Below, piece by piece: positions 4,294 through 42,160 of a stretch of 46,586 nucleotides of DNA. This DNA is from a virus: IMG/VR virus record IMGVR_UViG_3300018494_000026; one strand, written 5' to 3'. Both the position numbers and the translations under genes were made by a program. Each line of letters opens with the position of its first letter. Within the stretch, counting starts at the first letter, position 1. The notes below the pieces were generated by a model, which saw only the letters and a program-made list of their open reading frames with translations, made no database searches and was not told the origin of the DNA.

Positions 4294-5187
4294 ATGGAAA
4301 TCATCCGTTACTATCAAACGAAGAATCCATGTTACATATCCGGACGCAAGATCAAGCCGACTGGCATTGTGGTGCATAGCACCGGGGCGAACAACCCCTA
4401 TCTGAAGCGCTATGTCGGCCCGGATGACGGCATTCTGGGCAAGAATGAGTACAACAACCACTGGAACAAGGCAAGCGCAAACAAATGCATGCATGCCTTT
4501 ATTGGCAAGGCAGCAGATGGAAGCGTGAAGGTGTACCAGACATTGCCGTGGGATCATCGCTGCTGGGGTGTGGGAAGCGGAAAAAAGGGAAGCTACAACG
4601 CTTCCCACATCCAGTTTGAAATTTGCGAGGATAACAAGAAGGACAAAGCCTACTATGAGGAAGCCTTTGCATTGTCACAACAGCTTTGTGCATATCTGTG
4701 CGAACTGTACGGCATCAAGCAGGAAAACATTGTAGGACACTACGAGGCACATGCTGCCGGGTATGGATCGAATCATTCAGATCCGAAACCGTGGCAGAAG
4801 AAACATGGCGGGAGCATGGCACAATACAGGGCGTTTGTCAATAGCCTCGTAAACGGCTCAGAAACGCCTTCTGACGCGGATGTGAAGGAAGGTGACCAAT
4901 CTGCCACGGACACGCAGAGCAAGGCTGAGAAGCCCGTTACAACGCCCACAAACACGACACAGACCGGAAACATGGTGAAAACGATGAACACTCTCCGAAA
5001 AGGCAGTCGAGGGACACAGGTAAAAGTCCTGCAATGGTTGCTGAGTCTGAACGGCTACAATGTCGGAACGGTAGACGGCATCTTTGGCAACAATACGCTG
5101 AAAGCCGTGAAAGCATATCAGACAGCAAAAGGTCTGGATGCTGATGGCATTGTCGGCAAGAATACCTGGAATCAACTCTTAGCATAA
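4294..5187 (+). CDS. Endolysin: N-acetylmuramoyl-L-alanine amidase (Amidase_2/PGRP) with a C-terminal PG_binding_1 domain
   Basis: Amidase_2 pattern is present (GIVVHSTGA, HAFI, IQFEICE, IVGHYEAH..SDP). The C-terminus (LRKGSRGTQVKVLQWLLSLNGYNVGTVDGIFGNNTLKAVKAYQ..GLDADGIVGKNTW) is a classic peptidoglycan-binding repeat. Confidence 0.9.
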   Translation: MEIIRYYQTKNPCYISGRKIKPTGIVVHSTGANNPYLKRYVGPDDGILGKNEYNNHWNKASANKCMHAFIGKAADGSVKVYQTLPWDHRCWGVGSGKKGSYNASHIQFEICEDNKKDKAYYEEAFALSQQLCAYLCELYGIKQENIVGHYEAHAAGYGSNHSDPKPWQKKHGGSMAQYRAFVNSLVNGSETPSDADVKEGDQSATDTQSKAEKPVTTPTNTTQTGNMVKTMNTLRKGSRGTQVKVLQWLLSLNGYNVGTVDGIFGNNTLKAVKAYQTAKGLDADGIVGKNTWNQLLA

Positions 5188-9261: not shown

Positions 9262-9846
9262 ATGTTGGAAGGCATGAACGGCGTTTCCGCCAAGACTCCT
9301 GAGCAGATTCCTCTTGGTGCTGGCACGATTCACAAGAATCTGAAGTACGAGAAGGATAAAGGCTGGAATCTCGCTGAATCTTGCATCGGCGCGACTTCCG
9401 GTGGCAACAAGTGGTCTGTTGTCCCCAAGTTGTACTATCCGCCTATTGACGGCGTGGGTACGAAGCTGAAGGAAACCGCCACCCAGATTGGCGAAGATGC
9501 CAAGATGGAAATCAACATGATTGAGATAACGAAGGATCTGATTCAGACTTCTACGCTGGGCAAGGCTGGCACTTCTGAGGACACCACCTATGATCTGATT
9601 GAGTCTGCTGGCGAAGTGCTGCCTGAACACTTCTGGGAGAACATTGCCTTTGTGGGCAAGACCCTGAAGGGCAAGAACATTATCATCATCATGGGCAATC
9701 CCCTGTGTTCCTCCGGCATGGAGAACGAGGGCAAGAACGAGGAAAGCGGCGTGAACAAGTACACCTTTGAATGCCATGCAAGCATCAATGACGTGAACCT
9801 GAACAAGCTGCCCTGGAAGATTTACTATCCGAAGGCTACGGCGTAA
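9262..9846 (+). CDS. Major tail (tube) protein
   Basis: A 194-aa ORF directly upstream of the chaperone pair and tape measure, followed by a hairpin. No sheath gene is present, so this is a siphovirus-type tail. Confidence 0.7.
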   Translation: MLEGMNGVSAKTPEQIPLGAGTIHKNLKYEKDKGWNLAESCIGATSGGNKWSVVPKLYYPPIDGVGTKLKETATQIGEDAKMEINMIEITKDLIQTSTLGKAGTSEDTTYDLIESAGEVLPEHFWENIAFVGKTLKGKNIIIIMGNPLCSSGMENEGKNEESGVNKYTFECHASINDVNLNKLPWKIYYPKATA

Positions 9847-9904: not shown

Positions 9905-10300
9905 ATGAGTGAAGTTGAAAACAAGCGTACTCCCCGCCCTTTGAAGGGAACGGATATTTTCCTGATGACGAGCATCATTGGCAAGCTGGGTGTAAAGAAT
10001 CTGATGCGCTGCTGGGACGCGCCGGACGTGAAGGAAGCCCGCGAAAATACCAGTTCAGAGAATGCGGAAATGCTGGGTCAGCTCATTTTCCTTGGCGTGA
10101 TTGATGTGGTACTTGAACGGCTTGAATTCTGCGAGGGCAGTATTTGCAGACTGCTTTCCAAGCTGTACGACATGCCTGAAGAGGAGATCAAGGAAAAGGG
10201 CGCGGTTGAATATCTTGACATGTTCATGACTGTTGTCAAGGATGAGAATTTCGTGGATTTTTTCAAGCAGGCTTACGAATCTGTCAAGCGGATGATGTAA
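9905..10300 (+). CDS. Tail assembly chaperone (gpG-like)
   Basis: A 131-aa acidic ORF between the tube and tape-measure genes. It contains the slippery site listed next. Confidence 0.75.
   Translation: MSEVENKRTPRPLKGTDIFLMTSIIGKLGVKNLMRCWDAPDVKEARENTSSENAEMLGQLIFLGVIDVVLERLEFCEGSICRLLSKLYDMPEEEIKEKGAVEYLDMFMTVVKDENFVDFFKQAYESVKRMM
10258..10264 (+). promoter_or_regulatory. Candidate -1 programmed frameshift heptamer T_TTT_TTC
   Basis: In the 0 frame the codons read GAT TTT TTC. The -1 frame is open from 10246 and continues into ORF 10315..10644. This matches the conserved G/GT chaperone arrangement of long-tailed phages. Confidence 0.6.
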
Positions 10301-10314
10301 AGTTCTTTGACGTA

Positions 10315-10644
10315 TTGTATCAGCGGTATGCAAACCCAATGGAACTGCTGGACAATATGCTGATGACGGGTCAGCTTTACAGATTCGTGAGCGAGATTAT
10401 CAAGACGGTCAATGAGGAACTGGAAGAAAAAGCCCTGTGGGAATGGTGGTTACATAAGGATTGGGAACGATCCTGGAAAGAATTCCGCGAGTCCCTGAAT
10501 GATAAACAACATAATGCAGCACCAACGCGACAAGATACTCTGGACATTTTGAATGAGACGATGAATATCATGGCCTCTTTCCGTCCAGATGGCGGAGGTG
10601 AGCAGGATGAATCTATTTCGTCTGTTCGGGGAGATAGCGATTGA
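10315..10644 (+). CDS. Tail assembly chaperone extension (gpT-like), probably expressed as a frameshift fusion with 9905..10264
   Basis: It lies in the -1 frame relative to 9905..10300. That frame is open from 10246, and the track start is only a TTG. Confidence 0.65.
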   Translation: MYQRYANPMELLDNMLMTGQLYRFVSEIIKTVNEELEEKALWEWWLHKDWERSWKEFRESLNDKQHNAAPTRQDTLDILNETMNIMASFRPDGGGEQDESISSVRGDSD

Positions 10645-12343
10645 CGGGACGAGGGCGAACAGAACCCTTGATGACATTGCAAGAAGGGCTGGCATGACAA
10701 CGCAGGAAGTTGAATCGCATTTCAATAAGATAGGTACGGCGGCAGCGGGGATCATGCGGGGCATGGGCGTTGTCGGTGCGGCTATTGGTGGTGCGATGCT
10801 TGCTGTAACGGAAGGAACGAGGGAATACCGTGCGCAGATGGGCTTGCTTGACAGCGCGTTTCAATCCGCTGGGCATTCCTCTGCGGAGGCTAAAAGCACC
10901 TATTCAGAACTGAATGCGGTGCTGGGTGACACGGAGCAGGCTGTGGAAGCGGCACAGCACATTGCCCTGATTGCTGACAACGAAAAGGAAATGAACGAGC
11001 TGACGAAAATTGGCACAGGGATTTTCGCCAGTTACGGCGCAAGCCTTCCCCTTGAGGGGTTGTACGAGGCAATCGGGCACACAAGTGCCCTCGGAGAGGT
11101 GCAGGGCAGCCTCGCAGACGGATTGGAATGGGCTGGAATTTCCGTGGAGGATTTCAACAAAAAACTTGAAAAATGCTCCAATGAGGAAGAACGGCAAGAC
11201 CTCATCATGAAGACCTTGAAGGATACCTACGGGGAAGCGGCAACGCAATACCAGGCCACAAACAAGGACGTGATGGAGGCCCGAAAAGCCCAGGAGCGGC
11301 TCACGGATGCAATGGCTGAATTGGGCCGTGTTGGTGAACCCATCCTCACGGCAATCAAAAACAAGGTTGCGGGCATGGCGGAGGCGGCTATACCACACAT
11401 TCAGAATCTTGTCAACAAGGTCAAGGACATGAAGAAGTGGATAGCTGACAACAAGGATACCGTGGACAAATGGAAGGCGGCTATCATCGCTGTTACTGTC
11501 AGCACTGGGTCTTTTCTACTCATCATGAATTGGGGCAAGATCATGGCGGCTGCGAAAACAGCGATCATGGCAACCCGCGCGGCGGTGATCCTGTTCAATG
11601 CGGCTCTGAGGGCGAATCCGATTGGGCTTGTGATTTCCCTGTTGGCTGGACTGGTGGCAGGATTCATCTATTTGTGGAACAACAATAAGGGATTCAGACA
11701 GTTCTGGATTGATTTGTGGAACAAGCTCAAATCTGCCTGTTCAACTGCGATTACGGGCATTAAAAACAAGTTCAACGACCTGAAAGATGCTGCCGGGAAG
11801 GTGAAGAAGTGGTTTGAGGATATTCGCAAATCCATTTCGGACAAGATCGAATCGGCAGGGAAATCGGTGGGCAAAGTCGTGGACAAGATCAAGGGATTCT
11901 TCCCGCTGAAAATCGGCAAGATTTTCTCCAATCTGAAGATACCGAAGATTTCTGTCAGCGGCGGCAAAGCTCCTTACGGCATCGCTGGAAAAGGCAAAAT
12001 GCCTTCCTTTGACGTGAAGTGGAATGCTGAAGGCGCGATTTTCACAAAGCCCACCATCTTCAATACCCGGAATGGCTTGCAGGGCGTGGGTGAGGCTGGT
12101 GCAGAAGCGGTGCTTCCTGTGGCAAAGATGATGGACTATGTTTCTACTGCTGTGCGCAATGAGACAGGGAATATCGGGCAGATCATCATGGAGCAGAACA
12201 GGCTCTTGCTTGAATTCCTGCGGAGGAACATGCCGAAAATGGTTCAGCTTGATTCCGGGGCGATGGTGGGGGCGTTGCTTCCTGCTGTTGATACTGGGCT
12301 GGCTGACAGGTGGGAACATGTTAGAAGGGGCAATGTGAGGTAA
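10607..12343 (+). CDS. Tape measure protein, copy 1 (578 aa)
   Basis: Track ORF 10589..12343. I prefer ATG 10607, which lies 6 nt after GGAGGTG. It has a TMP-type N-terminus (MNLFRLFGEIAIDG), helical repeats, hydrophobic segments (IIAVTVSTGSFLLIMNW, GLVISLLAGLVAGFIYLW) and a TMP-type C-terminus (GVGEAGAEAVLPV). Confidence 0.8.
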   Translation: MNLFRLFGEIAIDGTRANRTLDDIARRAGMTTQEVESHFNKIGTAAAGIMRGMGVVGAAIGGAMLAVTEGTREYRAQMGLLDSAFQSAGHSSAEAKSTYSELNAVLGDTEQAVEAAQHIALIADNEKEMNELTKIGTGIFASYGASLPLEGLYEAIGHTSALGEVQGSLADGLEWAGISVEDFNKKLEKCSNEEERQDLIMKTLKDTYGEAATQYQATNKDVMEARKAQERLTDAMAELGRVGEPILTAIKNKVAGMAEAAIPHIQNLVNKVKDMKKWIADNKDTVDKWKAAIIAVTVSTGSFLLIMNWGKIMAAAKTAIMATRAAVILFNAALRANPIGLVISLLAGLVAGFIYLWNNNKGFRQFWIDLWNKLKSACSTAITGIKNKFNDLKDAAGKVKKWFEDIRKSISDKIESAGKSVGKVVDKIKGFFPLKIGKIFSNLKIPKISVSGGKAPYGIAGKGKMPSFDVKWNAEGAIFTKPTIFNTRNGLQGVGEAGAEAVLPVAKMMDYVSTAVRNETGNIGQIIMEQNRLLLEFLRRNMPKMVQLDSGAMVGALLPAVDTGLADRWEHVRRGNVR

Positions 12344-12345
12344 AG

Positions 12346-12374
12346 AAAAGGGACGGCAAATCGCCGTCCCTTTC
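12346..12374. terminator. Terminator between the convergent TMP1 and reverse-strand genes
   Basis: gggacggc / gccgtccc forms an 8-bp stem with an aaatc loop. It has an A-run on the left and only TTT on the right, so it should be stronger for the minus-strand gene and leaky for late (+) transcription. Confidence 0.7.
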
Positions 12375-12376
12375 AG

Positions 12377-12877
12377 TTAGAAACCTAAGCCCTTGTATGG
12401 TGCGAAAGTCATGCTGTCGTATTCAACGCAGACAACTTGATTGTTTTTTAGCGTTACTTTTCCAACCGAGCCACCGGAAAGCATATCGAAGTCGTGAACA
12501 AGTTTCCCGTTTGTGTAGATTTCCAAACTGCAATACCTCTGTCCTGCTGTGACGGTGTATGTTCCTGCCGGAATGTCTACACCGACAACGTATTCACCCA
12601 TGGGCACTACAACTTCACCTTGCACATTGCCACGGCTTCTAAGTTCTAACTGCATAATGGCAATGAGAACTTTTAGATAATTGTCGCTGTAACCAGAAAT
12701 AACTTCTGCGCTGGCCTGATGGCTAAAGACTGCGATTTCTTCTATTGTCATACCTTCAGCAAGGCAATTTTCGATAATTTGGGTGTATTCATCCATTGCC
12801 GATTCAGCCGATGCAACGCAATGGAAAACAAGCAGGAGAGTGAGAAGGAACGAAACAAAGGGACACAACTTTTTCAT
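12377..12877 (-). CDS. Secreted protein (Sec signal peptide), moron-like gene embedded between the two tape-measure genes
   Basis: ORF track. GGAGG lies 8 nt upstream. The signal peptide is MKKLCPFVSFLLTLLLVFHCVASA|ES (AXA site, no lipobox). The C-terminal part is beta-rich (GEYVVGVDIPAGTYTVTAG). It has its own promoter and terminator. Confidence 0.8.
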   Translation of the reverse strand: MKKLCPFVSFLLTLLLVFHCVASAESAMDEYTQIIENCLAEGMTIEEIAVFSHQASAEVISGYSDNYLKVLIAIMQLELRSRGNVQGEVVVPMGEYVVGVDIPAGTYTVTAGQRYCSLEIYTNGKLVHDFDMLSGGSVGKVTLKNNQVVCVEYDSMTFAPYKGLGF

Positions 12878-12906
12878 GTTGGCAACCTCCTATATCGTGA
12901 TACCTA

Positions 12907-12935
12907 TATGATGCATAAAAATCGGTTTTTGTCAA
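12907..12935 (-). promoter_or_regulatory. Sigma70-type promoter for the reverse-strand secreted-protein gene
   Basis: On the minus strand: TTGACA (12935-12930), a 17-nt spacer ending in TGc, then ATCATA (12912-12907). Confidence 0.6.
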
Positions 12936-12959
12936 GAGGGGAAGAAAGGCGGTGGGAAC

Positions 12960-14666
12960 ATGGATATATTTACGCTTGTTGGTAAAATCACGATTGAAAT
13001 TCAAGACGCATTGAACAACATCAATACCGTCATGACAGAAGTTCAAGAATTGGACGCGCTGTTGAATGGCACTCAAACTACAACTCAAACAACCGGGCAA
13101 GCAGTTGAAACGGCTACAAAGGATGCAACTGAAAAAGGCACCAGCACTTTGACCAAATGGAGCGTCATGATGGGCAACCTGGCAACACAGGCAGCAAACA
13201 AAGTGTATGACGCTGGCAAGAGCTTCTTGCAGACGGGCTACGAGTTCAACGCGAACATGGATTTGTGGCGAAACCAGTTGCAAAACATGCTGAGTCTCGA
13301 TTTCGCAGGGGCGGATGCATTTTTGAACAAATTACATCAGTTTGCTATTGACACGCCCTACTCTATGGATGAAGTTATGTCAAACGCAATTATGCTGATT
13401 GGCAATAAAAAGATAAGAGAATCAACAGATATTATTGATTTGCTTACGATCATCGGCAATGTGTCAAACGGCGAAAACGCAGCATTTGGCAGCATTGCAA
13501 AGGGCATCATGCAGGTTATGACGAAGGGAAAAGTCCAGGCGGAAGAAGCTAACCAACAGTTCGCAGAACGAGGAGTTGATGTTTGGCAGATTCTTGCTGA
13601 CTATTTTTCCTTTATCGACCGTGACGGTCAAGATGTATGGGAATCAGATGATGTATCGAGCTTGGGAACGATAAACCCTACCATCATGGCAACATCTGAG
13701 GAATTCATGGCGGCGATGAAACATGCTGCATTGCAAGATGGCGGCTTTTATTACGGCAGAATGGATGCCATGATGAATACTGCGACTGGTCAGGCACAGC
13801 GTATGCAGGACGCATACCAAAAGGCTGCTGGCGCATTTACAGGTGGCGTTTTTGAAACGTTTGCAACTCAAACGATTCCTGCAATCAGCGAGATCATGGA
13901 GAAGCTCGACAAGTGGGCAACAGAAAACCCGGAAGCCTTAAAGAATCTTGGTGAAGCATTTAGCAATTTTGCGACAGGCGGGTTGGATGTCTTTCTTGGC
14001 AGTTTGCAAGGGTTGCTTGGTTGGTGGAATGATAATCGTGCGGCATTCGACTCTTTGCTTGTACTACTTGGCGGCATCGCGCTGTATATCGGACATCCTG
14101 CGGCAGGCACGGCTTTGATTGCCACTGGTGCGTTTGATGCGTATACGGATGCAAAAAAGCAAATAGAAGAAGGTTCACCAGTAGGACAGTATGTGAATAA
14201 AGACCCGGAGATTAAAGAGGCTGTGAAAAATGGGACAACAGATGAACTTACTGGTACGGATTGGTTTACCTATCATGTAGGTGCACCTTTAGTTCAGTTT
14301 ATGCACGATTTGTTTCCAGGACTTAACGTAGACCCGTCTGTGATTGAAGATCCTGCCGAGGATGAAACCGACAATAAATATCAGACTCCCCTTTGGCAAC
14401 TGAACAACTTAGACACAGACGGAGTTGGTGGAAACAACGGAAGTATGTCCTTGTTTGGTTCGCTTCTGCAACAGCTTTCCACATTGAAAACTGATGTAAC
14501 GGCAGCGGCAAAAGAAGGTGTGTCTGAAGGCGTTGGTAATATCACCATCACCGGATATGTCACCACGGGTGATGTAAAACTGCAAGATGGTACGCTTGTC
14601 GGATCGCTGATGCCTCAGATTAACTTACAGCTTGGCTGGCAAAATGAGTTGAGTTCGAGGGGGTGA
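12960..14666 (+). CDS. Tape measure protein, copy 2 (568 aa, TP901-type core region)
   Basis: The N-terminus (MDIFTLVGKITIEI) parallels TMP1. The core pattern (FAIDTPYSMDEVMSNAIML...GSIAKGIMQVMTKGKVQAEEANQQFAERGVDVWQIL) resembles the TP901 tape-measure core. It also has a hydrophobic segment (LLVLLGGIALYIGHPAAG). Confidence 0.85.
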   Translation: MDIFTLVGKITIEIQDALNNINTVMTEVQELDALLNGTQTTTQTTGQAVETATKDATEKGTSTLTKWSVMMGNLATQAANKVYDAGKSFLQTGYEFNANMDLWRNQLQNMLSLDFAGADAFLNKLHQFAIDTPYSMDEVMSNAIMLIGNKKIRESTDIIDLLTIIGNVSNGENAAFGSIAKGIMQVMTKGKVQAEEANQQFAERGVDVWQILADYFSFIDRDGQDVWESDDVSSLGTINPTIMATSEEFMAAMKHAALQDGGFYYGRMDAMMNTATGQAQRMQDAYQKAAGAFTGGVFETFATQTIPAISEIMEKLDKWATENPEALKNLGEAFSNFATGGLDVFLGSLQGLLGWWNDNRAAFDSLLVLLGGIALYIGHPAAGTALIATGAFDAYTDAKKQIEEGSPVGQYVNKDPEIKEAVKNGTTDELTGTDWFTYHVGAPLVQFMHDLFPGLNVDPSVIEDPAEDETDNKYQTPLWQLNNLDTDGVGGNNGSMSLFGSLLQQLSTLKTDVTAAAKEGVSEGVGNITITGYVTTGDVKLQDGTLVGSLMPQINLQLGWQNELSSRG

Positions 14667-14670
14667 TTAG

Positions 14671-15093
14671 ATGCGAGGCATTACATTTGACAACAAGCAT
14701 TCCTATTGGGATTGGGGCTTGATGCTGACGAAACCTCCTGCAATCAGTACACCTGAACCGAAAACGCATTATGTGGACATTCCAGGAGCGCATGGTGCAA
14801 TGGATTTGACAGAGGCGCTGACAGGAAAGGTGCAGTACAAGAACAGGAAAATCGAATTGGAGTTCATCACAACGGCAGGCCGGGAAGACTGGTCTGCCGT
14901 TTATAGTGACATTCTTTCGGAATTGCACGGGCAGATGAAGGAAATCGCTCTTGACGATGACCCGATGCACTACTACAAAGGGCGAGTGACGGTTGGTGAT
15001 CCTGAGCGCGTCAATGATAAGACTGTCATGGTCAAGATGACGGCAGAGGTTGAGCCTTTCAAGAAAACCTATGAAGGGACGGCGATGCTGTAA
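14671..15093 (+). CDS. Distal tail protein (Dit), copy 1, short form (140 aa)
   Basis: The N-terminus (MRGITFDNKHSYWDWGL...YVDIPGAHGAMDLTE...LDDDPMHYYKGR...EPFK) is typical of the siphovirus Dit N-domain. It lies directly after a TMP. Confidence 0.75.
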   Translation: MRGITFDNKHSYWDWGLMLTKPPAISTPEPKTHYVDIPGAHGAMDLTEALTGKVQYKNRKIELEFITTAGREDWSAVYSDILSELHGQMKEIALDDDPMHYYKGRVTVGDPERVNDKTVMVKMTAEVEPFKKTYEGTAML

Positions 15094-16514
15094 TGTACAA
15101 AATGAAAGCGGATGGGGTCGTTTTTTACGACCCTTCCTCTGATGATATGGCACTGCATGTACTGTATCCCAAGGCAAAGTACGAGTTAAACAAGGCAGGA
15201 ACACTGACATTCACGATGCTTCCGGGTAACGTGATGTATGATGGTTTGCATAAACTAAAAACCGTTGTCACCATTGAACAGGATGATGAAGTGATTTTCC
15301 GTGGTCGTGTTCTGGAAACGGAGACAGACCTTTACAATCAGAAGAAGGTTCACTGCGAGGGCGAATTGGCCTATCTGCTGGACAGCATGCAGCGGCCTTA
15401 CAAGTACGATGGCAGCGCGAAAGAATACCTTCCCATGCTGATTGAAAACCACAATGCAGACGTGGAGGAAAGCAAACGATTCACGGTGGGGCTGATAACT
15501 GCGCTGACGGATGAGGATACTGTCAAGATTGAAAGCGAGAATTACGCAAATACGCTGGAAGAGATCAAGTCGCTTCTGCTGAATGAGTTCAACGGCTATC
15601 TGCGTGTGCGCTGGGAAGATGGTGTTCGCTATCTTGATTATGTGGACAAGTTCAATCAGACATGTTCACAGGAAATCAATTTCGGTGTGAATCTTGTGGA
15701 TATTGAAACCAATGTCAATGCAATGGATGTTTGTTCTGTACTGATTCCGCTGGGCAGATCGAAAAAAGGAAAATACACAAGCATTGCGAAGGCGAACGGC
15801 GGCAAGGATTACATCGAGGATGCTGCGCTGATAGCAAAGTATGGGCGAGTTGTCAAGACCTATACATGGGACGAAGTAGAAGACCCGGAAGAACTGCTTG
15901 AATTGGGTCAGAAACACATGGAACGGATGGCAGCAGAAACAACGCTGACCATCAAAGCGGTTGACCTCCACGCTGTTGGAGCGGATGTGGACGGCATCAG
16001 GCTTGGCGATACGGTGAAACTTGTTTCCGCCCCGCATAGGCTGGACAAGGAAGATGTATGTACGAAGATTGACCTGGACATTGAAAACCCGGAGAAGTCT
16101 GAGTACACCTTTGGCCTTCCTATGGAAACGCTGACGGACAGAAACGCGAGTGCAACAAGGAAGAACAAGTCAAGCATGGATCACATGCACAAGTGGCTGA
16201 CGGAGACGGACGATTCATTGCGAATCGTTGTAGATAAAGTGAATGGTCTTATCTTACTGCAAGCCGATTATGTGACGATTAAAGCATTAGAAACGGAAAT
16301 TGAAGGACTGCTGAAAGCGGAAAATCTGCAAGCGGCGATTGCAGATTTGGATAACGTTGCAGTTTCTTCATTGTCTGTTAGCGGCACTGCGCATTGCACA
16401 AACCTTGCAGTGCATGGCGCGGGAAGTGTGGACGGTGATTTGTCAGTCAGCGGTGCAATAAACGGCATTTACTTGGACGACCTTGAAGCGCGTGTTAGTG
16501 CGCTGGAGGGATAA
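15093..16514 (+). CDS. Tail-associated (Tal-like) minor structural protein, copy 1 (473 aa)
   Basis: TAATG overlap with Dit1. Tal N-domain pattern is present (ELNKAGTLTFTM..., FRGRVLETE, CEGELAYLLDSMQRPY), with a coiled-coil C-terminus. Confidence 0.75.
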   Translation: MYKMKADGVVFYDPSSDDMALHVLYPKAKYELNKAGTLTFTMLPGNVMYDGLHKLKTVVTIEQDDEVIFRGRVLETETDLYNQKKVHCEGELAYLLDSMQRPYKYDGSAKEYLPMLIENHNADVEESKRFTVGLITALTDEDTVKIESENYANTLEEIKSLLLNEFNGYLRVRWEDGVRYLDYVDKFNQTCSQEINFGVNLVDIETNVNAMDVCSVLIPLGRSKKGKYTSIAKANGGKDYIEDAALIAKYGRVVKTYTWDEVEDPEELLELGQKHMERMAAETTLTIKAVDLHAVGADVDGIRLGDTVKLVSAPHRLDKEDVCTKIDLDIENPEKSEYTFGLPMETLTDRNASATRKNKSSMDHMHKWLTETDDSLRIVVDKVNGLILLQADYVTIKALETEIEGLLKAENLQAAIADLDNVAVSSLSVSGTAHCTNLAVHGAGSVDGDLSVSGAINGIYLDDLEARVSALEG

Positions 16515-16516
16515 AT

Positions 16517-17155
16517 ATGAAGGGGGTTTCATTCCTTGGGTTTCACTCCTACCGTGACCTTCACATTCTGCTGACTGGAAAGGAGATCGGTTCGCCGGAA
16601 GTCAAGCGGCAAACCATCGACATTGAAGGGGCAGACGGTGAACTGGATTACACGGATTTCTTTGGTGAACCCAAATACACGAATGCGCAGCACCGATTTG
16701 ATTTTGAAAGCATTCAGCCCTGGAATGAACAACTCTCACAGTTTACGGACATCAAGAACAAGATACATGGGAAGAAGGGAAGGATTGTGCTGGACAACGA
16801 TCCTTCCTTCTTCTATGTGGGCAGGTGCTTTGTATCGGCCTACAAGAATGAAGTGACCATCGGCAGGATCAGCATTGAGTGCGACTGTGAACCGTACAAG
16901 TACAAGATGCAACCGACAATAATGTCGGTCACAATTGACGGCACTCAGACCATTATCTTGACAAATGCGCGGAAACGTGCTGTGCCGACCATCACCACCA
17001 CGTCGGACATGACAATTTCCTTCGGGGAAGGGATATGGACGAACCGGGCAGGGACATTCACTATTCCTGAATTGGAACTTGTGGAGGGTGAGAACCTTGT
17101 CACTGTTACAGGCACAGGAACGATCACGTTCACATGGCAGGAGGCGGTGCTATGA
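16517..17155 (+). CDS. Distal tail protein (Dit), copy 2, long form (212 aa)
   Basis: It is paralogous to 14671..15093 (MKGVSFLGFHSYRDL...IDIEGADGELDYTD...LDNDPSFFYVGR...EPYK) and carries an extra C-terminal beta domain. Confidence 0.75.
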   Translation: MKGVSFLGFHSYRDLHILLTGKEIGSPEVKRQTIDIEGADGELDYTDFFGEPKYTNAQHRFDFESIQPWNEQLSQFTDIKNKIHGKKGRIVLDNDPSFFYVGRCFVSAYKNEVTIGRISIECDCEPYKYKMQPTIMSVTIDGTQTIILTNARKRAVPTITTTSDMTISFGEGIWTNRAGTFTIPELELVEGENLVTVTGTGTITFTWQEAVL

Positions 17156-18573
17156 CGTACCGGGTGTATTGTGACAGCATGCTTCTGTATCACAGCAAAC
17201 TTGAAAACCTTGTGTTGTTCAATCCGTCTGTGGAATTGGAGGTCAACAAAACCGGGTCGTTCACATTCACAGTGCCTTCAAACCATCCGTATTATGGCCT
17301 GATTCACAAGATGAAAAGCATCATCACGGTATATCAGGACGATTACCTGCTGTTCCGTGGAAGGGTGCTTGACGATGAAATAGGCTGGCATAATGAGAAG
17401 GCTGTCACCTGTGAAGGGGAGATGGCCTTTTTGCTTGACAGTATCATGCGACCCTATGACTTTTCCGGCAGTATCCCGGAATACTTGGCTGTGCTGCTGG
17501 ACAGTCACAACAGTCAAGTGGATGCGGATAAGCGGTTTACGCTGGGCAAGGTGACGGTTGCAGACGCAAATGACTACATCGTGCGGTCAAACATCGACTA
17601 CACCGACACATGGACTGAAATGCAGGACAAGCTGGTCAAACTGCTTGGCGGGTATCTGCAAATCAGGCATGAAGGCGATGCGCATTACATTGACTATTTG
17701 CAAGACTTCACACTGCTTGCTCCGCAAAAAATCGAATTCGGCAAGAATCTGCTGGACTTGAAACGCATTCGGAAGGGCGCGGACATTGCAACAGCGGTCA
17801 TCCCACTGGGCGCGAAACTGAAGGATGCAGACGGTAAAGACACGGACGAACGCCTGACCATTGCAGAGGTCAATGCTGGGCTTGACTACATTGTGGATGA
17901 AGATGCGAAAGCACAATTCGGCCTGATTGTCAAGACGGTCATATTTGACGATGTGACCGATGCAAACAATCTGCTGACGAAAGGCAAAGCATACCTTGCA
18001 GGACTTGTCAAGTTGCCTGAAACCATTGAGTTGACGGCGGCTGATATGGCAACGCTGGGGCAGGACATTACGTCCTTTCACATTGGCACAAAGGTTCAAG
18101 TGAAAAGCAATCCCCACGGCATTGACCAACTTTTCACGGTCAGCAAGCTATCCATCAAATTGCTTGACCCGGCATCGAATCACTTGACGCTGGGCGGGGT
18201 GCTGGATACCTTCACGGCATCAACAAGCAAGATCACAGCCATCACCGGAAAGGATGGCAAGAACGGAGAGGATGCTGTCACCTTGCGGATTGATTCCAGC
18301 AGGGGGACTGTGTTCAAGAACAGCGAAGTTTCGACTGTTCTGAATGTTGTCATTTTCAAGGGAGGCAAAACGATCACGGATGCGGCCGCTATGAGGGCTG
18401 AGTTCGGGAGCAACGCCTATCTTGAATGGCAATGGCAGCGTATGGGGGAAGCGACCTTCGGGACGATATTGACAACGGACAGCAGAATATCGAACGAAGG
18501 ATTTGCTTTGTCGCTGGCACCGAGCGACGTAGACACAAAGGTTGTTTTCAAATGCCAACTTGTCTCGGAATGA
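17152..18573 (+). CDS. Tail-associated (Tal-like) minor structural protein, copy 2 (473 aa)
   Basis: Track ORF 17134..18573. ATG 17152 overlaps the Dit2 stop (ATGA) and lies 7 nt after GGAGG. It is paralogous to 15093..16514 (EVNKTGSFTFTV, FRGRVLDDE, CEGEMAFLLDSIMRPY). Confidence 0.75.
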   Translation: MTYRVYCDSMLLYHSKLENLVLFNPSVELEVNKTGSFTFTVPSNHPYYGLIHKMKSIITVYQDDYLLFRGRVLDDEIGWHNEKAVTCEGEMAFLLDSIMRPYDFSGSIPEYLAVLLDSHNSQVDADKRFTLGKVTVADANDYIVRSNIDYTDTWTEMQDKLVKLLGGYLQIRHEGDAHYIDYLQDFTLLAPQKIEFGKNLLDLKRIRKGADIATAVIPLGAKLKDADGKDTDERLTIAEVNAGLDYIVDEDAKAQFGLIVKTVIFDDVTDANNLLTKGKAYLAGLVKLPETIELTAADMATLGQDITSFHIGTKVQVKSNPHGIDQLFTVSKLSIKLLDPASNHLTLGGVLDTFTASTSKITAITGKDGKNGEDAVTLRIDSSRGTVFKNSEVSTVLNVVIFKGGKTITDAAAMRAEFGSNAYLEWQWQRMGEATFGTILTTDSRISNEGFALSLAPSDVDTKVVFKCQLVSE

Positions 18574-18595
18574 TAATGAAGAAAGGAGAGTTTCT

Positions 18596-19240
18596 ATGGC
18601 TATCAAGTCGGTTGACCAGATTTCTATCGTTGACGTAACGGATGCTTATTCCGTTATCCTGACCTCCGAAACCCATGCCTTCCCTGGTACGACCAATGCT
18701 GCCAAAGCTGGTGCGACCACGACTCAGATCATTGCCATGCAGGGTTCTTCACAGATCCCTTGCAGTGTGACGGTATCGGAAATCACGAAGCCTGCGGGTG
18801 TCACGGTTTCCTCTGACAGCAACACCACGTCCCCGACTCTCACTATTTCTGTCACTACATCCGTGACGAGTGGCGGTGTCATCAAGATTCCCGTCCATAT
18901 TGGGGACATCACTATCACGAAGGAATTCACATTCACGATTGCCTTCATGGGTGCGACTGGCGCAACTGGTGCAACGGGCAATCCCGGTGCGGATGCAATC
19001 ACGCTGACAATCACGTCCAGCAACGGCACGATTTTCAAGAACTCCGCCATTGAAACGGTGTTGACTGCCCATGTATACCGGGCTGGTGCAGAATTGACTG
19101 CGGCTCAGGTTACGGCTCTTGGCACAATCAAGTGGTACAAGGATGGTGGAGAAACGGCTGTCGGTACTGGTGCAACCCTTACTATTGATGCAGGAGATGT
19201 GAGCCACAGGGCAAGCTACGTTGCACAGTTGGAGGGATGA
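18596..19240 (+). CDS. Tail fibre protein with a short collagen-like motif
   Basis: Frame of track ORF 18542..19240. ATG 18596 follows AAAGGAGAG. It contains GATGATGATGNPGADA (G-X-Y x5), and its C-terminal domain (ITLTITSSNGTIFKNSAIETVL) repeats the C-terminus of Tal2 (VTLRIDSSRGTVFKNSEVSTVL). Confidence 0.7.
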   Translation: MAIKSVDQISIVDVTDAYSVILTSETHAFPGTTNAAKAGATTTQIIAMQGSSQIPCSVTVSEITKPAGVTVSSDSNTTSPTLTISVTTSVTSGGVIKIPVHIGDITITKEFTFTIAFMGATGATGATGNPGADAITLTITSSNGTIFKNSAIETVLTAHVYRAGAELTAAQVTALGTIKWYKDGGETAVGTGATLTIDAGDVSHRASYVAQLEG

Positions 19241-19243: not shown

Positions 19244-20143
19244 ATGGCTGTTAAGGCAGCGGGGCAGATTACGCTATCAAGCGTTGTCGATGTGGCAGCA
19301 ACATATCGGTATTATCTGCTCCAATCTTCCACGGCGGCAATCCCTTCAAAGCCCACCACGTTTCCTCCTGCTAACACCTGGGACGATACAGAACCGGGAT
19401 ACACGGACGGCAGCACCACAAGCCTGTACACGGTAGACTGCACGGTCTTCAGTGACGGGACGTTCGTGTACTCACCTGTATCCCTGTCCAGCAGTTATGA
19501 GGCGGCAAAAGCGGCCTATAACAAGGCCACAAACGCCCTTCTGCACACGGTTGTACAGAGCGCAACAGCCCCGTCAGCAACAACCTATATGTGGCTGGAC
19601 ATCAGCGCAGAACCGCCTGTATTGAAGCGGTATGAGGCTGAAACGGCAACATGGGTGACGGTGAATGATGCAACCGAGATCGTGTACAACCTGGAACAAA
19701 ACATTGAATCGTCCCTTACAAAAAGCGCGGAGGACATCACGGCGAAGGTTGCGGAAAGCTACACGCTGAAAGAAGATGCGGAAGCCCTTGTGTCGGAAGT
19801 CAGCACACAACTGAGCCTGACAAAGGGCAGCTTCGACATCCAGTTTGAGCAGTTCAGCGCAGACATTGCGGCTGTTGCGGCTGGAACGGATGCGGAGTTT
19901 GAGGAAATCCGCAAGTACATCCGCTTTGTGGATGGGATGATCCTGCTGGGAGAAGTGGGGAATGAGTTGGAACTGCAAATCTCAAATAACCGCATTTCCT
20001 TCATGCAGGATGGCGCGGAGGTTGCCTATTTTAGTGACAGAAAGCTGCATGTCACCGATGCATCTTTCCTGCACAGTTTGCAGATAGGTAATTTCGCATA
20101 TATGCACCGAACGAACGGGAATCTCAGTTTCAAACACCTATAA
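19244..20143 (+). CDS. Tail fibre / host-specificity structural protein
   Basis: The N-terminus (MAVKAAGQITLSSVVDVAATYRYYLLQSS...PP.NTWDDTEP) is typical of Firmicutes prophage fibre proteins, with a coiled-coil middle region. Confidence 0.65.
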   Translation: MAVKAAGQITLSSVVDVAATYRYYLLQSSTAAIPSKPTTFPPANTWDDTEPGYTDGSTTSLYTVDCTVFSDGTFVYSPVSLSSSYEAAKAAYNKATNALLHTVVQSATAPSATTYMWLDISAEPPVLKRYEAETATWVTVNDATEIVYNLEQNIESSLTKSAEDITAKVAESYTLKEDAEALVSEVSTQLSLTKGSFDIQFEQFSADIAAVAAGTDAEFEEIRKYIRFVDGMILLGEVGNELELQISNNRISFMQDGAEVAYFSDRKLHVTDASFLHSLQIGNFAYMHRTNGNLSFKHL

Positions 20144-20183: not shown

Positions 20184-22247
20184 ATGGCAGCATCAGGAAC
20201 GATACAGGAAGCAATTCGGACGGGCTATCGCTTGCAGATTGCATGGGCGGTAGACAGCCAGTCGGTGGCAAATAACACATCCACGGTAACGGCGAAGGTT
20301 CAGCTTGTGTCCACGGGGTCGAGCTACACCATCAACTCCAGCGCAAGCAAATCCGGCAGCCTGACCATCAATGGGACGAAATACAGTTTCACGTTTACAG
20401 CGGCATTGAGTGGTAGTCAGACGAAGGAAATCTTCAAAAAGACGGTCACGATTTCCCATGCTGCGGATGGCACGAAGACCTGTGCGTTCTCCGCAACGGC
20501 TGGCATCAATGTCACGCTATCCGGGACGTACTACGGCAATGTCACGGCCTCTGGCAACGGTGTATTCAACACCATTGCAAGGGCAAGCACCATTTCCAGT
20601 GTGACTTCCTCTGTGGCTGTCAATGGTACGAATACGGTCACGGTGAATATCACAAGGGCATCTTCCAGCTTCACGCACACGGTGGTTTTCTCGTTTGGTA
20701 CATACTCAAAGTCCACAACGGGAGTCGGTACGTCAACCAGCTACGCAATCCCGACCTCCTGGCTGAATGCAATCCCGTCAGCAACCAGCGGCACAGCGAA
20801 GGTTACTGTCACGACCTATTCCGGCTCAACGAAGATAGGTTCTGCGGTCAGCAAGAATTTCACTCTGACTGTGCCTTCAACCGTTGTTCCGTCCTTTTCC
20901 TCCGTTGCTGTGGCTGATACGACCACCTATCAGGCAACATTCGGGAACATGGTGCAGAACAAGTCAAAGGCGAAGTTCACCATCACGGCTGTTGGCAACC
21001 TGGGGTCTACCATCACGGCATACAAGACAGTCTTTGAGGGCAAGACCTACACAGGAGCAACACCTACCACTTCCACGATCACAAAGAGTGGTACGGCATC
21101 TGCTGTCATTACGATTACAGATAGTCGTGGCAGGACTGCGACATTCACAAAAACCTGGACGGTTGTTGCCTACTCCGCTCCGAAGATTGCCAATTTCACG
21201 GTTGCCCGTTGTTTGGCTGATGGAACGGAGAACTACGAAGGGACATTTGTCAAGGTTGCTTTCAACTACACGATTGCATCCGTCAACAGTAAGAATGCAA
21301 ACACCTACGTCATTGAATATAAGCCCCAAAGCGGCACGACATGGACGGCCTTGACAAATGGCACAGGATATGCAGTCAACACGTCCATCATCAGTACGAA
21401 TGGGGCTTTTGACGTGGACACAAGCTATGACTTGCGGCTATCCATCACGGACAGCTTCACCACGATTCGCGGCCAGACGGAGATTCCCACGGCCTTCACG
21501 TTGCTTGACTTCAATGCTTCCGGGCGTGGCGTAGCGTTCGGAAAGGTGTCTGAGTTGACAGAAGGCGTGGAATTTGCTTTGCCGACACAATTCAGCCATG
21601 CAGAAACGCCTTCTTCCCCGATATACCTTCAGAGCGGTCAGGACTTGAATGACCTTCTTGAGCCGGGCTATTATGCCATTCCAAATACGGCGGTCAGCAC
21701 CACTTTACTGAACAAACCTTGGTCAGCAAATGCAACTGGCGGTGTGTATGTGTTTGTCGAAGGTGACGGCATGGGCAAGGTTCAGATTGCTCACAGGCTG
21801 TCAAAGGATGACGGGGAAATCTACGAACGCAGCTATTATCAAAGCGCATGGGGCAACTGGTACAGGGTGCATGGTGGCAGAGGGAAAGTGCTTTGGTCTG
21901 GCGGGTATTACATGACGGCTACCCACACCATTGCCCTGTCTGAGAAGGTCAGTCAGCAGCCAAACGGGATCGTGCTTGTGTTCAGTCGCTATTCTGGTGG
22001 AGCAGCGCAGGATTATCATTGGAATGAGTTCTTTGTTTCCAAAGAGTGGGTCAGGCGGCATCCCGGCACAGGCCATTCGTTCATGATGACGAATGACGGC
22101 CTTTTCTCGCTCATGGCAACTAAATATCTGTACATTCACGATGATAAAATAGGCGGCAACGATGTGAACGGTCAATCCGGCACAGGAACAAGCGGGATTA
22201 TATACAACAATGCAGGGTTCGTCCTGCGATATGTCATCGGAGTATAA
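20184..22247 (+). CDS. Receptor-binding / host-specificity protein (DUF859-like N-terminal region, pyocin-knob-like C-terminus)
   Basis: Track ORF 20166 has a TTG start, so I prefer ATG 20184. The N-terminal pattern (SQSVANNTSTVTAKVQLVS...SGSLTINGTKYSF...ISHAADGTKTCAFSA...NTIARAS) resembles siphovirus DUF859. The C-terminus (GQDLNDLLEPGYYAIPN...LLNKPW...GGVYVFV...YERSYYQSAWGNWYRV) resembles a knob domain. Confidence 0.7.
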   Translation: MAASGTIQEAIRTGYRLQIAWAVDSQSVANNTSTVTAKVQLVSTGSSYTINSSASKSGSLTINGTKYSFTFTAALSGSQTKEIFKKTVTISHAADGTKTCAFSATAGINVTLSGTYYGNVTASGNGVFNTIARASTISSVTSSVAVNGTNTVTVNITRASSSFTHTVVFSFGTYSKSTTGVGTSTSYAIPTSWLNAIPSATSGTAKVTVTTYSGSTKIGSAVSKNFTLTVPSTVVPSFSSVAVADTTTYQATFGNMVQNKSKAKFTITAVGNLGSTITAYKTVFEGKTYTGATPTTSTITKSGTASAVITITDSRGRTATFTKTWTVVAYSAPKIANFTVARCLADGTENYEGTFVKVAFNYTIASVNSKNANTYVIEYKPQSGTTWTALTNGTGYAVNTSIISTNGAFDVDTSYDLRLSITDSFTTIRGQTEIPTAFTLLDFNASGRGVAFGKVSELTEGVEFALPTQFSHAETPSSPIYLQSGQDLNDLLEPGYYAIPNTAVSTTLLNKPWSANATGGVYVFVEGDGMGKVQIAHRLSKDDGEIYERSYYQSAWGNWYRVHGGRGKVLWSGGYYMTATHTIALSEKVSQQPNGIVLVFSRYSGGAAQDYHWNEFFVSKEWVRRHPGTGHSFMMTNDGLFSLMATKYLYIHDDKIGGNDVNGQSGTGTSGIIYNNAGFVLRYVIGV

Positions 22248-22272
22248 AACACGAAAAGAGGGCTTGATTCAT

Positions 22273-22581
22273 ATGCAGATCACTCTAACTTGGCAAACCA
22301 TCATCACGGCATCTACGGTCATTGGCGCGATTGTCGCGCTTGTTACATACTTCTCCAAAGTGGTTCGATGGGTTGACAAGCAAGGTAGACAGGACAAGGA
22401 TATTAAGGAAATCCGGCAGCACCACGAGGATGACATGGCAAGCATCAAGACGGAACAGAAGTTGCTTGTATATGGAGTTCTCGCCTGTTTGAAAGGTCTG
22501 AGTGAACAGGGGTGCAATGGCCCGGTAACGGAAGCCATTCACAAGATTGAGAAGTATCTGAATGAAGAAGCGCATAGCTAA
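22273..22581 (+). CDS. Small membrane-anchored protein (one N-terminal TM); possible second holin-like or accessory protein
   Basis: Frame of track ORF 22210..22581, starting at ATG 22273. TM segment is TIITASTVIGAIVALVTYF. It is the last rightward gene before the integrase and is followed by a terminator. Confidence 0.6.
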   Translation: MQITLTWQTIITASTVIGAIVALVTYFSKVVRWVDKQGRQDKDIKEIRQHHEDDMASIKTEQKLLVYGVLACLKGLSEQGCNGPVTEAIHKIEKYLNEEAHS

Positions 22582-22694: not shown

Positions 22695-24377
22695 TCAAAC
22701 CTTTAACTTCACATCAAGCTCGATGGGGGTTTGCGTCCAGTTGCCGCCTGTGTTCAATGGAGAGCGGTAGCGCGTCCTTTTCTGCACGGGATCATAATAC
22801 CGTTCTTGCTGGCTTTTTGTTCTGACTGACTTCTCACGGCTGTATGTCATGCGGTCAATGCATGCCTTTAGCAGCTTGTTTTTCTTTTCAACGGATGCGT
22901 CCGGGTCGGACAAGGCATCCAGGGCATCTTGGAAGCTGCGTTTCTTTTCCACATAGTCAACGGGTTCAGGCATGGATTCGTAAGCCTTGCAAAGAGCCTG
23001 TCTGACTTCTTCTTTTTCTTTCAAGAGTTTTGCGTTCAGGATTTGGAACACATGGTCAGGCATCCGCTTGGCTGGGTCAGGATCGGCTTGTGCTTCCCAT
23101 TGGGCAATTTCCTTTTCGTCCAGTTCTATGCGTTTGGCTTCAAGACGTTTGATCAGGTTGGCGTGCAGCTTGCGAGAATCCCCATCGTCATTCTGAATGC
23201 GGATTTCAAAGTCAGCGATGCATTGTCTCAACACGTCAGCGACTTTTTTCTCCATTTCCTCATACAGGCAGGAAGTGGTTTTGCAATAGTTCTGCCCATC
23301 ACACAGCAAACGTGGCGCGGAACGTTCTGCACCATTCTTCTTGTAGGTGCGGAGGGACATTGCTCTGCCACATTGACACCACAAAAGCCCTGCAAGCGGA
23401 TTGCGGATTTTTGTCTTTGCCTTTTTGCGCGGGTTGCGGCCTTTCTTTTCCTGCGCTGCCCGGAACAGTTCATCGGAGATAATCGCCTCATGTTTGCCGT
23501 CATAGACAAGGTATTCGCCTATCTTGGCCTTGGGTTGGGTCTTTCTGATTTCGCCATCCTCAACGATGGTAACGGTTTTGCGGTGATTCCATTTCACCTT
23601 GCCGATGTAATGTTCATTTTCAAGCATCTCTTTGATGGATGGCATAGACCACTTTTCGCCCTTGGGAGGCTTGATGCCAAGTTCATCAAGGCGGTATGCA
23701 ATGGTTGTGCAGCCGAGGTCTTGATTGACGTACATATCAAAGATCATGCGGACAACATCTGCCTCGTGTGGATTGATTTCAAGCGTTGGGCATTCCCGCT
23801 TGCCTTCCTTCACCTTGATTTTTTTGTATCCATACGGGGCAATAGAACCGATGTAGTTGCCCTGGCTGACAGACAGCAAACGTCCGTTGTTTTGAATCTT
23901 TTTGTAGTATTCCAGGTAGTCGTTACCCTTTTCCAATTCGCGCTTGAAATGCTCCCAGTCGCGTTCGTCTCGCATATCATAGATGCTTTCCCTGCCGTAC
24001 ACGTCCGGGATGATAACAAGGGTGTTGGTCAGTTTCAGCAGCTTCATCAAGCGGCCTATGTCCTCCATATCACCACGGGAAAGACGTTGAGGGTCTACGA
24101 CCTTCACGGCCTTGTACTTGGGTGATTCGACCATGCGGAGAAGGCGGTTGATTTCCGGGCGTTCTTTCAACGTTTCGCCGGAAACGACCTCGCGGAATTT
24201 GTTTTCCTCCGGGGATTTCCTGCCGAACATCTTAACTGTCCAGTTGTCGAGGATTTCTTCGTGCTTGGCAAGCACTTCCTCCACGGTGAGCAACGGGTCA
24301 TCCGACTGGGATTTTCGTAAATAGTCCAATATGTTTTCGGGCGTTAACCCTAACTCTGATAAACTGTGATAATACAT
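22695..24377 (-). CDS. int: Large serine recombinase (integrase)
   Basis: 560 aa. It has an N-terminal resolvase-type catalytic motif (LDYLRKSQSDD), a recombinase domain, a zinc-ribbon region (LLWCQCGRAM...LLCDGQNYCKTTSC) and a C-terminal coiled coil. Confidence 0.9.
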   Translation of the reverse strand: MYYHSLSELGLTPENILDYLRKSQSDDPLLTVEEVLAKHEEILDNWTVKMFGRKSPEENKFREVVSGETLKERPEINRLLRMVESPKYKAVKVVDPQRLSRGDMEDIGRLMKLLKLTNTLVIIPDVYGRESIYDMRDERDWEHFKRELEKGNDYLEYYKKIQNNGRLLSVSQGNYIGSIAPYGYKKIKVKEGKRECPTLEINPHEADVVRMIFDMYVNQDLGCTTIAYRLDELGIKPPKGEKWSMPSIKEMLENEHYIGKVKWNHRKTVTIVEDGEIRKTQPKAKIGEYLVYDGKHEAIISDELFRAAQEKKGRNPRKKAKTKIRNPLAGLLWCQCGRAMSLRTYKKNGAERSAPRLLCDGQNYCKTTSCLYEEMEKKVADVLRQCIADFEIRIQNDDGDSRKLHANLIKRLEAKRIELDEKEIAQWEAQADPDPAKRMPDHVFQILNAKLLKEKEEVRQALCKAYESMPEPVDYVEKKRSFQDALDALSDPDASVEKKNKLLKACIDRMTYSREKSVRTKSQQERYYDPVQKRTRYRSPLNTGGNWTQTPIELDVKLKV

Positions 24378-41783: not shown

Positions 41784-42029
41784 TTAGTGATTAGCTACTG
41801 TGTAAACTGTCTTAACTCCGTTATCATAGTTTACTGTGATGGACTGCGTGCCGTCGTAGTTGTTTGCGCGTTTAATGCTTGTAATGTACTTGCAAGCGTG
41901 AATCTTTTTGTTAATGAGGGCGATGGAAAGAGATTCGTAAACTTCTGCGGGGTTTGTGTTGCGGTAGGATTCTTCCCAGGTGCGGCCGGACTTGACGTAG
42001 TTAATCATGCTGATTTCGCGAGTAGTCAT
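41784..42029 (-). CDS. Leftward operon gene 1: 81-aa protein
   Basis: ORF track, with GGAGG 8 nt upstream. Confidence 0.65.
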   Translation of the reverse strand: MTTREISMINYVKSGRTWEESYRNTNPAEVYESLSIALINKKIHACKYITSIKRANNYDGTQSITVNYDNGVKTVYTVANH

Positions 42030-42144: not shown

Positions 42145-42160
42145 TAGGAAATGCACTAAA

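Follow-up and report, generated by a model that had tools for sequence, protein, structure and literature searches.

Two diverged TMP/Dit/Tal sets, one nested inside the other, in the tail modules of gut and rumen siphophages

Textbook siphovirus assembly uses one tape-measure protein (TMP) and one Dit-Tal initiator per phage, and in siphophage tips of known structure (SPP1, TP901-1, 80alpha, and lambda) the C-terminus of the TMP sits within the hub formed by the distal tail protein, Dit, and by Tal. Here we describe the tail module of a virus, IMG/VR record IMGVR_UViG_3300018494_000026 (46,586 nucleotides; this whole stretch of DNA is called the window below), in which the entire TMP/Dit/Tal initiation set occurs twice. 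A duplication of this kind had been claimed in an original prediction made from the letters alone, and profile matches were found for both TMPs, both Dits, and both Tals. Each set has the same parts, in the standard TMP-Dit-Tal order, as the initiators of Gram-positive siphophages (SPP1, TP901-1, 80alpha) and the monocin tip. The window differs from those initiators in having two sets in one genome with one tube protein and one G/GT chaperone pair, in a Dit (Dit-b) without a C-terminal domain, and in Tals without a lysin or peptidase domain. We propose, with a probability of roughly 45%, that the two sets form autonomous initiation complexes that share the tube protein and the chaperone pair and give two kinds of tail. 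The tail block reads as follows.

9262..9846, plus strand: major tail (tube) protein (phrog_885 major tail protein, E 6.5e-44)
9905..10644, plus strand: single G/GT tail-assembly chaperone pair; G at 9905-10300, T part in the -1 frame, open to 10644
10607..12343, plus strand: TMP-a (TMP1), 578 aa (PHROG TMP families)
12377..12877, minus strand: reverse open reading frame (ORF), a moron of 166 aa with a signal peptide, outside the tail machinery
12960..14666, plus strand: TMP-b (TMP2), 568 aa (Pfam TMP_3, TIGR02675)
14671..15093, plus strand: Dit-b (Dit1), 140 aa (phrog_33)
15093..16514, plus strand: Tal-b (Tal1), 473 aa, gp27-like hub with a short C-terminal extension (PF06605, phrog_3558, TIGR01665)
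16517..17155, plus strand: Dit-a (Dit2), 212 aa (phrog_33)
17152..18573, plus strand: Tal-a (Tal2), gp27-like hub (PF06605, phrog_3558)
18596-19240, 19244-20143, and 20184-22247, plus strand: fibre or receptor-binding genes after set a, the last encoding a DUF859 protein (PHROG tail or tail-fibre matches; PF05895, E 1.5e-46)

Two diverged Dit or tube-fold genes, one of them encoding a bare ring domain of ~120-140 aa, are found here as in Lactococcus phage Nocturne116 (DTP1/DTP2, a 3+3 ring) and in T5 and DT57C (two rings). Phages of that type have no second hub or second TMP as described in PMC13595954, whereas here the TMP and the hub are doubled too, and one set is exchangeable as a unit. 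A single-copy relative, which the original prediction had suggested looking for, does exist. NatCom_20922 (PV036430.1, Ca. Heliusvirales) resembles the window in its homologous, identically ordered fibre and DUF859 genes, in its TMP, the C-terminus of which shows 31% identity to the C-terminal half of TMP-a, and in its Dit (220 aa) and Tal, which are 29-37% and 37-45% identical, respectively, to the window copies. Unlike the window, it has a single 996-aa TMP, one Dit, one Tal, and no nested cassette. The doubled, nested arrangement, with a cassette boundary inside a TMP gene, is undescribed in the literature that we found, and all of its parts come from known families. No published description of two TMPs or two Dit-Tal pairs turned up, in papers on gut-phage lineages either, although our coverage of the literature was incomplete and an earlier description is possible; several matches for "two tape measure" concerned two chaperones, and an Oenococcus phage paper proved irrelevant. 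Of the suspicion that the arrangement might be common and already described in its clade, the first half therefore stands, as it is universal among the members examined, while for the second half we found no description.

One genome can also give alternative adsorption devices through inversion of the Mu G segment or the P1 C segment, or through the diversity-generating retroelement of BPP-1. The outcome proposed here is the same, with the difference that the whole initiator is doubled and both alternatives lie in one apparently co-transcribed block. No invertible repeats were found between 9000 and 23000, where the inverted matches are all short (20-27 nt) and imperfect (70-86% complementary); reverse transcriptase was not searched for. 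A 560-aa serine recombinase at 22695-24377, with Resolvase and Recombinase domains, looks like an integrase. Multivalent phages such as phi92, CBA120, and K1-5/SP6 encode several receptor-binding proteins per genome, carried as spikes on one baseplate, and we know of none that duplicates its TMP or hub.

Both TMPs are recognized by profiles. TMP-a matches 12 PHROG tape-measure families (best E 1.4e-33), which bears out the earlier naming of 10607..12343 as a tape-measure gene, and a tblastn search with it matched 379 deposited phage records, annotated TMPs among them. TMP-b scores 42.8 bits against Pfam TMP_3 (PF20155; gathering cut-off 41), also matches TIGR02675, and gives weak tblastn matches to Arthrobacter phage TMPs. 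The two genes also lie in tape-measure positions, TMP-a directly after G/GT and TMP-b after TMP-a, immediately 5' of Dit-b, and hydrophobic segments occupy residues 289-359 of TMP-a and 360-384 of TMP-b. Across relatives, both families begin with M-x-[LIV]-F-x-L-x-G-x-I-x-I, and the TMP-a family and most TMP-b proteins end with V-x-L-D-[TS]-G-x-[LM]-V-G-x-L-x-P...RG; the terminal patterns that had been noticed as shared by the two window proteins are thus real and conserved in both families. BLASTP aligns the two window proteins over their last 30 residues only (E 0.015). When the family alignments were compared with hhalign, they matched from residues 1-575 of TMP-a to 1-568 of TMP-b (99.7%, E 1e-26). 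Judged by sequence, TMP-a and TMP-b are old, complete paralogues. The complete termini of each protein and this head-to-head alignment rule out a single TMP gene split in two.

Both Dits match phrog_33 (E 6.7e-15 for Dit-b and 2.9e-14 for Dit-a), and they are 31% identical to each other (BLASTP, E 5e-21). The AlphaFold2 model of Dit-b (pLDDT 85.6) has as its top Foldseek matches the Dits of the monocin tip, TP901-1, SPP1, and 80alpha, with a probability of 1.00 and TM-scores of 0.63-0.78 over the query and 0.31-0.43 over the targets, about 40% of the target chains being covered. Because Dit-b covers only part of these chains, it is predicted to be a bare N-terminal ring domain without the C-terminal galectin-like domain. 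The model of Dit-a (pLDDT 79) aligns over its full length to the Dits of monocin, NF5, SPP1, and TP901-1 (probability 1.00) and includes an all-beta C-terminal domain, as modelled a canonical two-domain distal tail protein. The fold matches of the Dits include 2x8k, 4v96, 6v8i, and 9j1k. Dit-b has 140 homologue clusters, the full-length ones of 139-141 aa, and Dit-a has 1581. Sequence-only PDB searches with the Dit and Tal proteins returned nothing useful.

The two Tals are 35% identical over the hub region, the first ~360 aa (BLASTP, E 4e-76). Against PF06605 (gathering cut-off 31.3), Tal-b scores 87.9 bits (E 1e-24) and Tal-a 50.6 bits (E 3e-13); both match phrog_3558 (E 1.8e-116 and 3.2e-128, respectively), and Tal-b also matches TIGR01665. 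These profile matches agree with the earlier assignment of the genes starting at 14671 and 15093 to the Dit and Tal families. The identity of 30-40% that had been estimated by eye between copies holds for the Dits and the Tals but not for the TMPs. Scans with Pfam and TIGR profiles found no peptidase, lysozyme, or amidase family in either Tal, so that Tal-a and Tal-b are hubs in the structural sense only; a lysin domain is missing from many Tal proteins. The start of Tal-b overlaps the stop of Dit-b. For Tal-a, the ATG at 17152, which overlaps the Dit-a stop, is the likely start; the ORF listing permits 17134, and gene callers on identical contigs begin Tal-a at the 473-aa position. The C-terminal ~100 residues of Tal-a recur, at ~32% identity, at the C-terminus of the 18596-19240 product (window 18250-19240), which also carries a short collagen-like G-A-T repeat. 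The repeat common to the two proteins looks like a fibre or immunoglobulin-like module.

At least 24 contigs, assembled from samples in JGI, ENA, and Logan, carry an identical Dit-a with the same neighbouring genes, and 61 distinct related loci share the layout. We therefore reject an assembly artefact, as the original prediction had argued on the basis of divergence. There is no DNA-level repeat between the copies of any pair, and Tal-a is 45% identical to the Tal of the single-copy phage as against 35% to Tal-b; a recent tandem duplication is thereby ruled out, and the copies are old paralogues.

A TMP-a profile scan of IMG/VR returned 374 stretches with TMP-a relatives, of which 80 were kept, with TMP-a identities to the window of 53-90%; loci were labelled with hidden Markov models (HMMs) built from the first loci found. 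The same gene order was seen in loci from a Tal-a-based scan of IMG/VR and a TMP-a-based scan of GTDB genomes and on two further contigs of ~46-48 kb, and the layout also occurs on contigs of metagenome-assembled genomes (MAGs) and of Logan. In 61 unique loci TMP-a is followed by TMP-b, and no loss of TMP-b was found among loci with enough downstream DNA. Thirty loci have at least 7 kb after TMP-b. Two Dits and two Tals were labelled in 22 of them and two Dits with one Tal in four, probably because the available sequence ends there. Two loci (L048, L089) have a cassette that the HMMs did not recognize, followed by Dit-a; one (L009) was a labelling miss with both pairs present; and one (L023) has Dit-b and Tal-b alone, followed by fibres. 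In L023 (10001-21707) both TMP genes and Dit-b/Tal-b are followed by collagen-like and tail-fibre genes, with no Dit-a/Tal-a within 4.6 kb. L054 and L095/L096 resemble L023, on contigs too short for certainty, and TMP-a in this subclade is 570-575 aa long. A frozen recombination intermediate, one of the explanations first offered for the window, is excluded by these data, since all loci with sufficient sequence retain the layout, even where TMP-a identity is as low as 53%.

The order of the window genes, TMP1, reverse gene, TMP2, Dit1, Tal1, Dit2, Tal2, was confirmed by the ORF listing and by translation. Compared across relatives, it is better read as a nested arrangement, TMP-a [TMP-b, Dit-b, Tal-b, extras] Dit-a, Tal-a, fibres, than as a gene-by-gene tandem duplication. 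Set a, comprising TMP-a, Dit-a, Tal-a, and the downstream fibre and DUF859 genes, is conserved. Set b lies between TMP-a and Dit-a, and its distal part, which starts ~90 residues before the end of TMP-b and takes in Dit-b, Tal-b, and any receptor-binding genes, is exchanged among relatives as one cassette. Among eight fully compared loci, identities in set a were 54-90% for the TMP, 54-81% for Dit, and 63-85% for Tal; the corresponding values in set b were 22-48%, 42-73%, and 40-64%.

Cassette b occurs in several types that are non-homologous to one another while set a stays the same. Type i, that of the window, has a 140-aa Dit and a phrog_3558 Tal; type ii has a 261-288-aa Dit and a phrog_538 hub, together with additional structural genes; type iii has a Dit-a-like Dit, a Tal-a-like Tal, and its own DUF859 protein; and there are at least two further, unrecognised types. 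The C-terminal motif of TMP-b follows the cassette, being present in 23/23 type i, 9/9 type iii, and 0/17 type ii loci; that of TMP-a is kept in every locus examined. An HMM of the N-terminal motif matches TMP-b in all but three of the listed loci. Two loci, L091 (11786-14157) and L092 (11755-14284), have TMP-a proteins that are 97% identical and TMP-b proteins that are near-identical over ~480 residues, after which the final ~90 residues are fully diverged and swapped together with Dit-b and Tal-b, L091 being of type iii and L092 of type ii. They are a natural recombinant pair with the break ~90 residues before the end of TMP-b.

Because the motif tracks the cassette type, and because of the L091/L092 chimera, TMP-b appears to be cognate to Dit-b and Tal-b, in agreement with the location of the TMP C-terminus in the solved tips; by elimination, TMP-a would belong with Dit-a and Tal-a. 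In support of the latter pairing, NatCom_20922 combines a single TMP that is TMP-a-like at its C-terminus with a Tal closest to Tal-a. Each type of pair can stand alone, as L023 has Dit-b/Tal-b only and NatCom_20922 has one canonical Dit and a Tal closer to Tal-a. Across the eight loci, identity at the TMP-a C-terminus correlated best with Dit-a identity (rho 0.63), a weak test with so few loci and only suggestive.

We favor two tail types as the most economical reading. Each TMP C-terminus would plug its own Dit6-Tal3 hub, so that an infected cell would contain two kinds of initiator, both extended by polymerisation of one and the same tube protein. The N-terminal motif shared by the TMPs is the likely interface to the tube protein, the G/GT pair, and the neck, and since both TMPs keep this motif, expected at the neck-proximal end, both kinds of tail should be capable of joining heads. 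Virions of two kinds would then be present in a burst, some with tip a, whose receptor-binding device is conserved, and others with tip b, whose device is rapidly exchangeable, and the population would hedge its host range. We extend this, slightly more tentatively, to the whole clade, in which gut and rumen siphophages would make dimorphic virions whose set b is horizontally exchangeable, with the boundary in the TMP gene ~90 codons from its end. Among the explanations first offered for the window, alternative tail tips thus fits best, and a two-layer or heteromeric tip is possible.

The latter idea, in which both sets build one composite tip with stacked or 3+3 Dit rings, both TMPs in the lumen, and two-tier hubs, so that every virion has both systems, seems to us possible but clearly less probable than two tail types. 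In its favor are the retention of both TMPs in all 61 loci and in the L023 subclade, where they accompany a single Dit-Tal pair, genes that appear co-transcribed and translationally coupled, the precedents for two Dit-like proteins in one tail that are given below, and the bare ring domain of Dit-b, which is like Nocturne116 DTP1. It is hard to reconcile, as a fixed interface, with the replacement of cassette b by non-homologous types (140-, 221-, and 288-aa Dits; phrog_3558 or phrog_538 hubs) while set a is unchanged. The C-terminus of each TMP is hub-specific, and plugs in series would need a TMP to pass a closed hub; TMP-b is sometimes shorter than TMP-a and sometimes up to twice as long, which gives no consistent stacking order. 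In the literature we met no tail that has a second gp27-like hub or a second TMP species.

Several points weigh against two tail types. No relative without TMP-b was found, and some losses would be expected were set b dispensable as an additional tip. This universal retention, and the presence of two TMPs beside one Dit-Tal pair in the L023 subclade, could mean that the TMPs work jointly in one tail. TMP-b identity correlated with Dit-b identity at only ~0.14 across the eight loci, in the same weak test. As the C-terminal motif is common to TMP-a and to the TMP-b proteins of types i and iii, cross-pairing may occur. Separate assembly of sets a and b is purely inferred for every member of the clade. 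Finally, tails with a pair of Dit-like proteins are known: that of Nocturne116 contains a 3+3 hetero-hexamer, in which DTP1 (121 aa) is similar to the ring-only Dit-b of the window, and those of T5 and DT57C have two rings (PMC13595954).

The lengths of the TMPs bear on another idea, that they are two halves of one ruler, placed end to end or cooperating. The original prediction took the near-equal length of the two window proteins as a functional constraint, which the relatives do not support. TMP-a is 569-591 aa long (median 579) among the 61 loci, three contig-end-truncated copies aside, whereas TMP-b ranges from 467 to 1207 aa and in L021 reaches 1207 aa against 579 aa for TMP-a. With TMP-a fixed and TMP-b variable, the 578/568 match in this genome is coincidental. 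Enzymatic domains were considered as the cause of the long TMP-b proteins, and no enzymatic Pfam domain accounts for the extra length. For a joint ruler one can cite the summed length (578 + 568 = 1146 aa), which is near the 996 aa of the NatCom_20922 TMP, and the short tail of ~87 nm that TMP-a alone predicts by the textbook rule of 1.5 A per residue. We nevertheless consider it very unlikely, given that each protein has a TMP-type N-terminus, a hydrophobic region, and a hub-type C-terminus, and that the head-to-head alignment of the two family profiles spans both from end to end. Moreover, the C-terminus of the NatCom_20922 TMP is homologous to the C-terminal half of TMP-a and not to TMP-b, though it is TMP-b that adjoins a Dit, and a joint ruler leaves the two Dit-Tal pairs unexplained.

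The arrangement of the genes suggests that both sets are made together. The tail genes form a tightly packed plus-strand block, seen in the ORF listing and by translation, and from TMP-b to Tal-a the intergenic spacing is -21 to +4 nt, and start codons overlap stop codons. Promoter-like and terminator-like signals in the block were no more numerous than the shuffled expectation, with no separate promoter or regulator for either set. Given this spacing, the lack of internal signals beyond chance, and the lack of invertible repeats, sets a and b are likely co-expressed. They would also have to share one tube protein, since the module has a single one, no second copy being found between 9000 and 22600. 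No chaperone-like gene precedes TMP-b, so one G/GT pair serves two TMPs.

A further reading is that only one set makes the infectious tail and the other makes headless particles like F-type tailocins or is a spare, used after recombination or under particular conditions. In its favor, set b evolves much faster and is exchanged horizontally, and the structure closest to the models of both Dits is that of the tip of monocin, a Listeria F-type tailocin. However, neither set has its own promoter or regulator, both are intact ORFs in every locus despite deep divergence, and both TMPs keep the neck-proximal N-terminal motif. We regard this reading as unlikely, though less so than a joint ruler.

The reverse gene between the TMP genes is an autonomous moron at an insertion hot spot rather than a part of the tail system. 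Its product has a signal peptide and no Pfam or PHROG match. It has its own promoter-like -35/-10 site at 12935-12908, and a terminator hairpin on the minus strand (12346..12374), between the convergent stop codons, with a 12-bp stem followed by UUUUCUUU (-22.1 kcal/mol, z = -5.7). Homologues 34-40% identical lie at the same junction in L001, L006, and L021. The gap between TMP-a and TMP-b falls into two classes, 15-79 nt (34 loci) and 326-1316 nt (27 loci), and many relatives lack the reverse gene. An invertible switch around this gene was considered and rejected in view of the lack of inverted repeats, the promoter-like site and terminator that belong to the gene itself, and its absence from so many relatives. 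That the secreted product acts in superinfection exclusion is speculation.

The G/GT pair, homologues of which occupy the same position in relatives, has a -1 slippery heptamer, U UUU UUC, at 10258-10264 (from sequence and translation). Starting 6 nt past this site is an arm of an imperfect 22-nt inverted repeat (10271-10292 / 10371-10392, 86% complementary), which could be a frameshift-stimulating structure. The fibre and DUF859 genes are likewise syntenic 3' of Tal-a in relatives.

The window as a whole is a temperate siphovirus genome, given its head and tail modules, a serine recombinase, a helix-turn-helix (HTH) regulator, and no sheath gene among the proteins scanned; we place the phage among those of gut or rumen Clostridia. 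Upstream of the tail block lie genes for a portal, a MuF-like protein, a scaffold protein, a major head protein, and adaptors; downstream lie the large serine recombinase and the HTH regulator. An amidase or endolysin-like gene (4294-5187; phrog_15001, E 1e-53) is placed within the head module, between the MuF-like and scaffold genes, and the same placement is seen in L025 (Amidase_2 and PG_binding_1). A holin-like small membrane protein is encoded at 22210-22581, beyond the tail fibres, and the genome may therefore have its lysis genes in separate places. Most of the window has a G+C content of 46-54%, which falls to 36% at 42001-43000, shortly before a 464-aa ORF (43263-44657) that is putatively the large terminase.

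In the deposited phage collection, neither Tal query matched two places in one record (144 and 103 records), the only member of the clade was an unannotated metagenomic scaffold, MT835521.1, and megablast of the region gave no match. No cultured lysogen was found among NCBI-derived homologues, which sit on contigs of viral size. L021 (CALCHM010000201.1) is a 35-kb contig with the phage layout binned in an 'uncultured Prevotella sp.' MAG, whereas MAGs of Oscillospiraceae and Clostridia hold other copies of the layout; since the contig is the size of a virus, its assignment to Prevotella probably reflects an error in binning.

The clade is abundant in metagenomes, with the 374 TMP-a stretches in IMG/VR and the 1581 Dit-a protein clusters described above, and all members examined break the rule of one initiator per phage. 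The natural chimeras map a functional boundary at the TMP C-terminus, where the last ~90 residues go with Dit and Tal, which is useful for tail-tip engineering. If both sets prove to build one composite tail, such a tail would be the first on record to have two tape measures and two hubs. If the sets assemble separately and the two tail types are real, relatives with a long TMP-b would have tail types that differ in length, and the clade would use a new, hard-wired form of whole-tip bet-hedging without DNA inversion or mutagenesis, which would change host-range prediction for uncultured gut phages.

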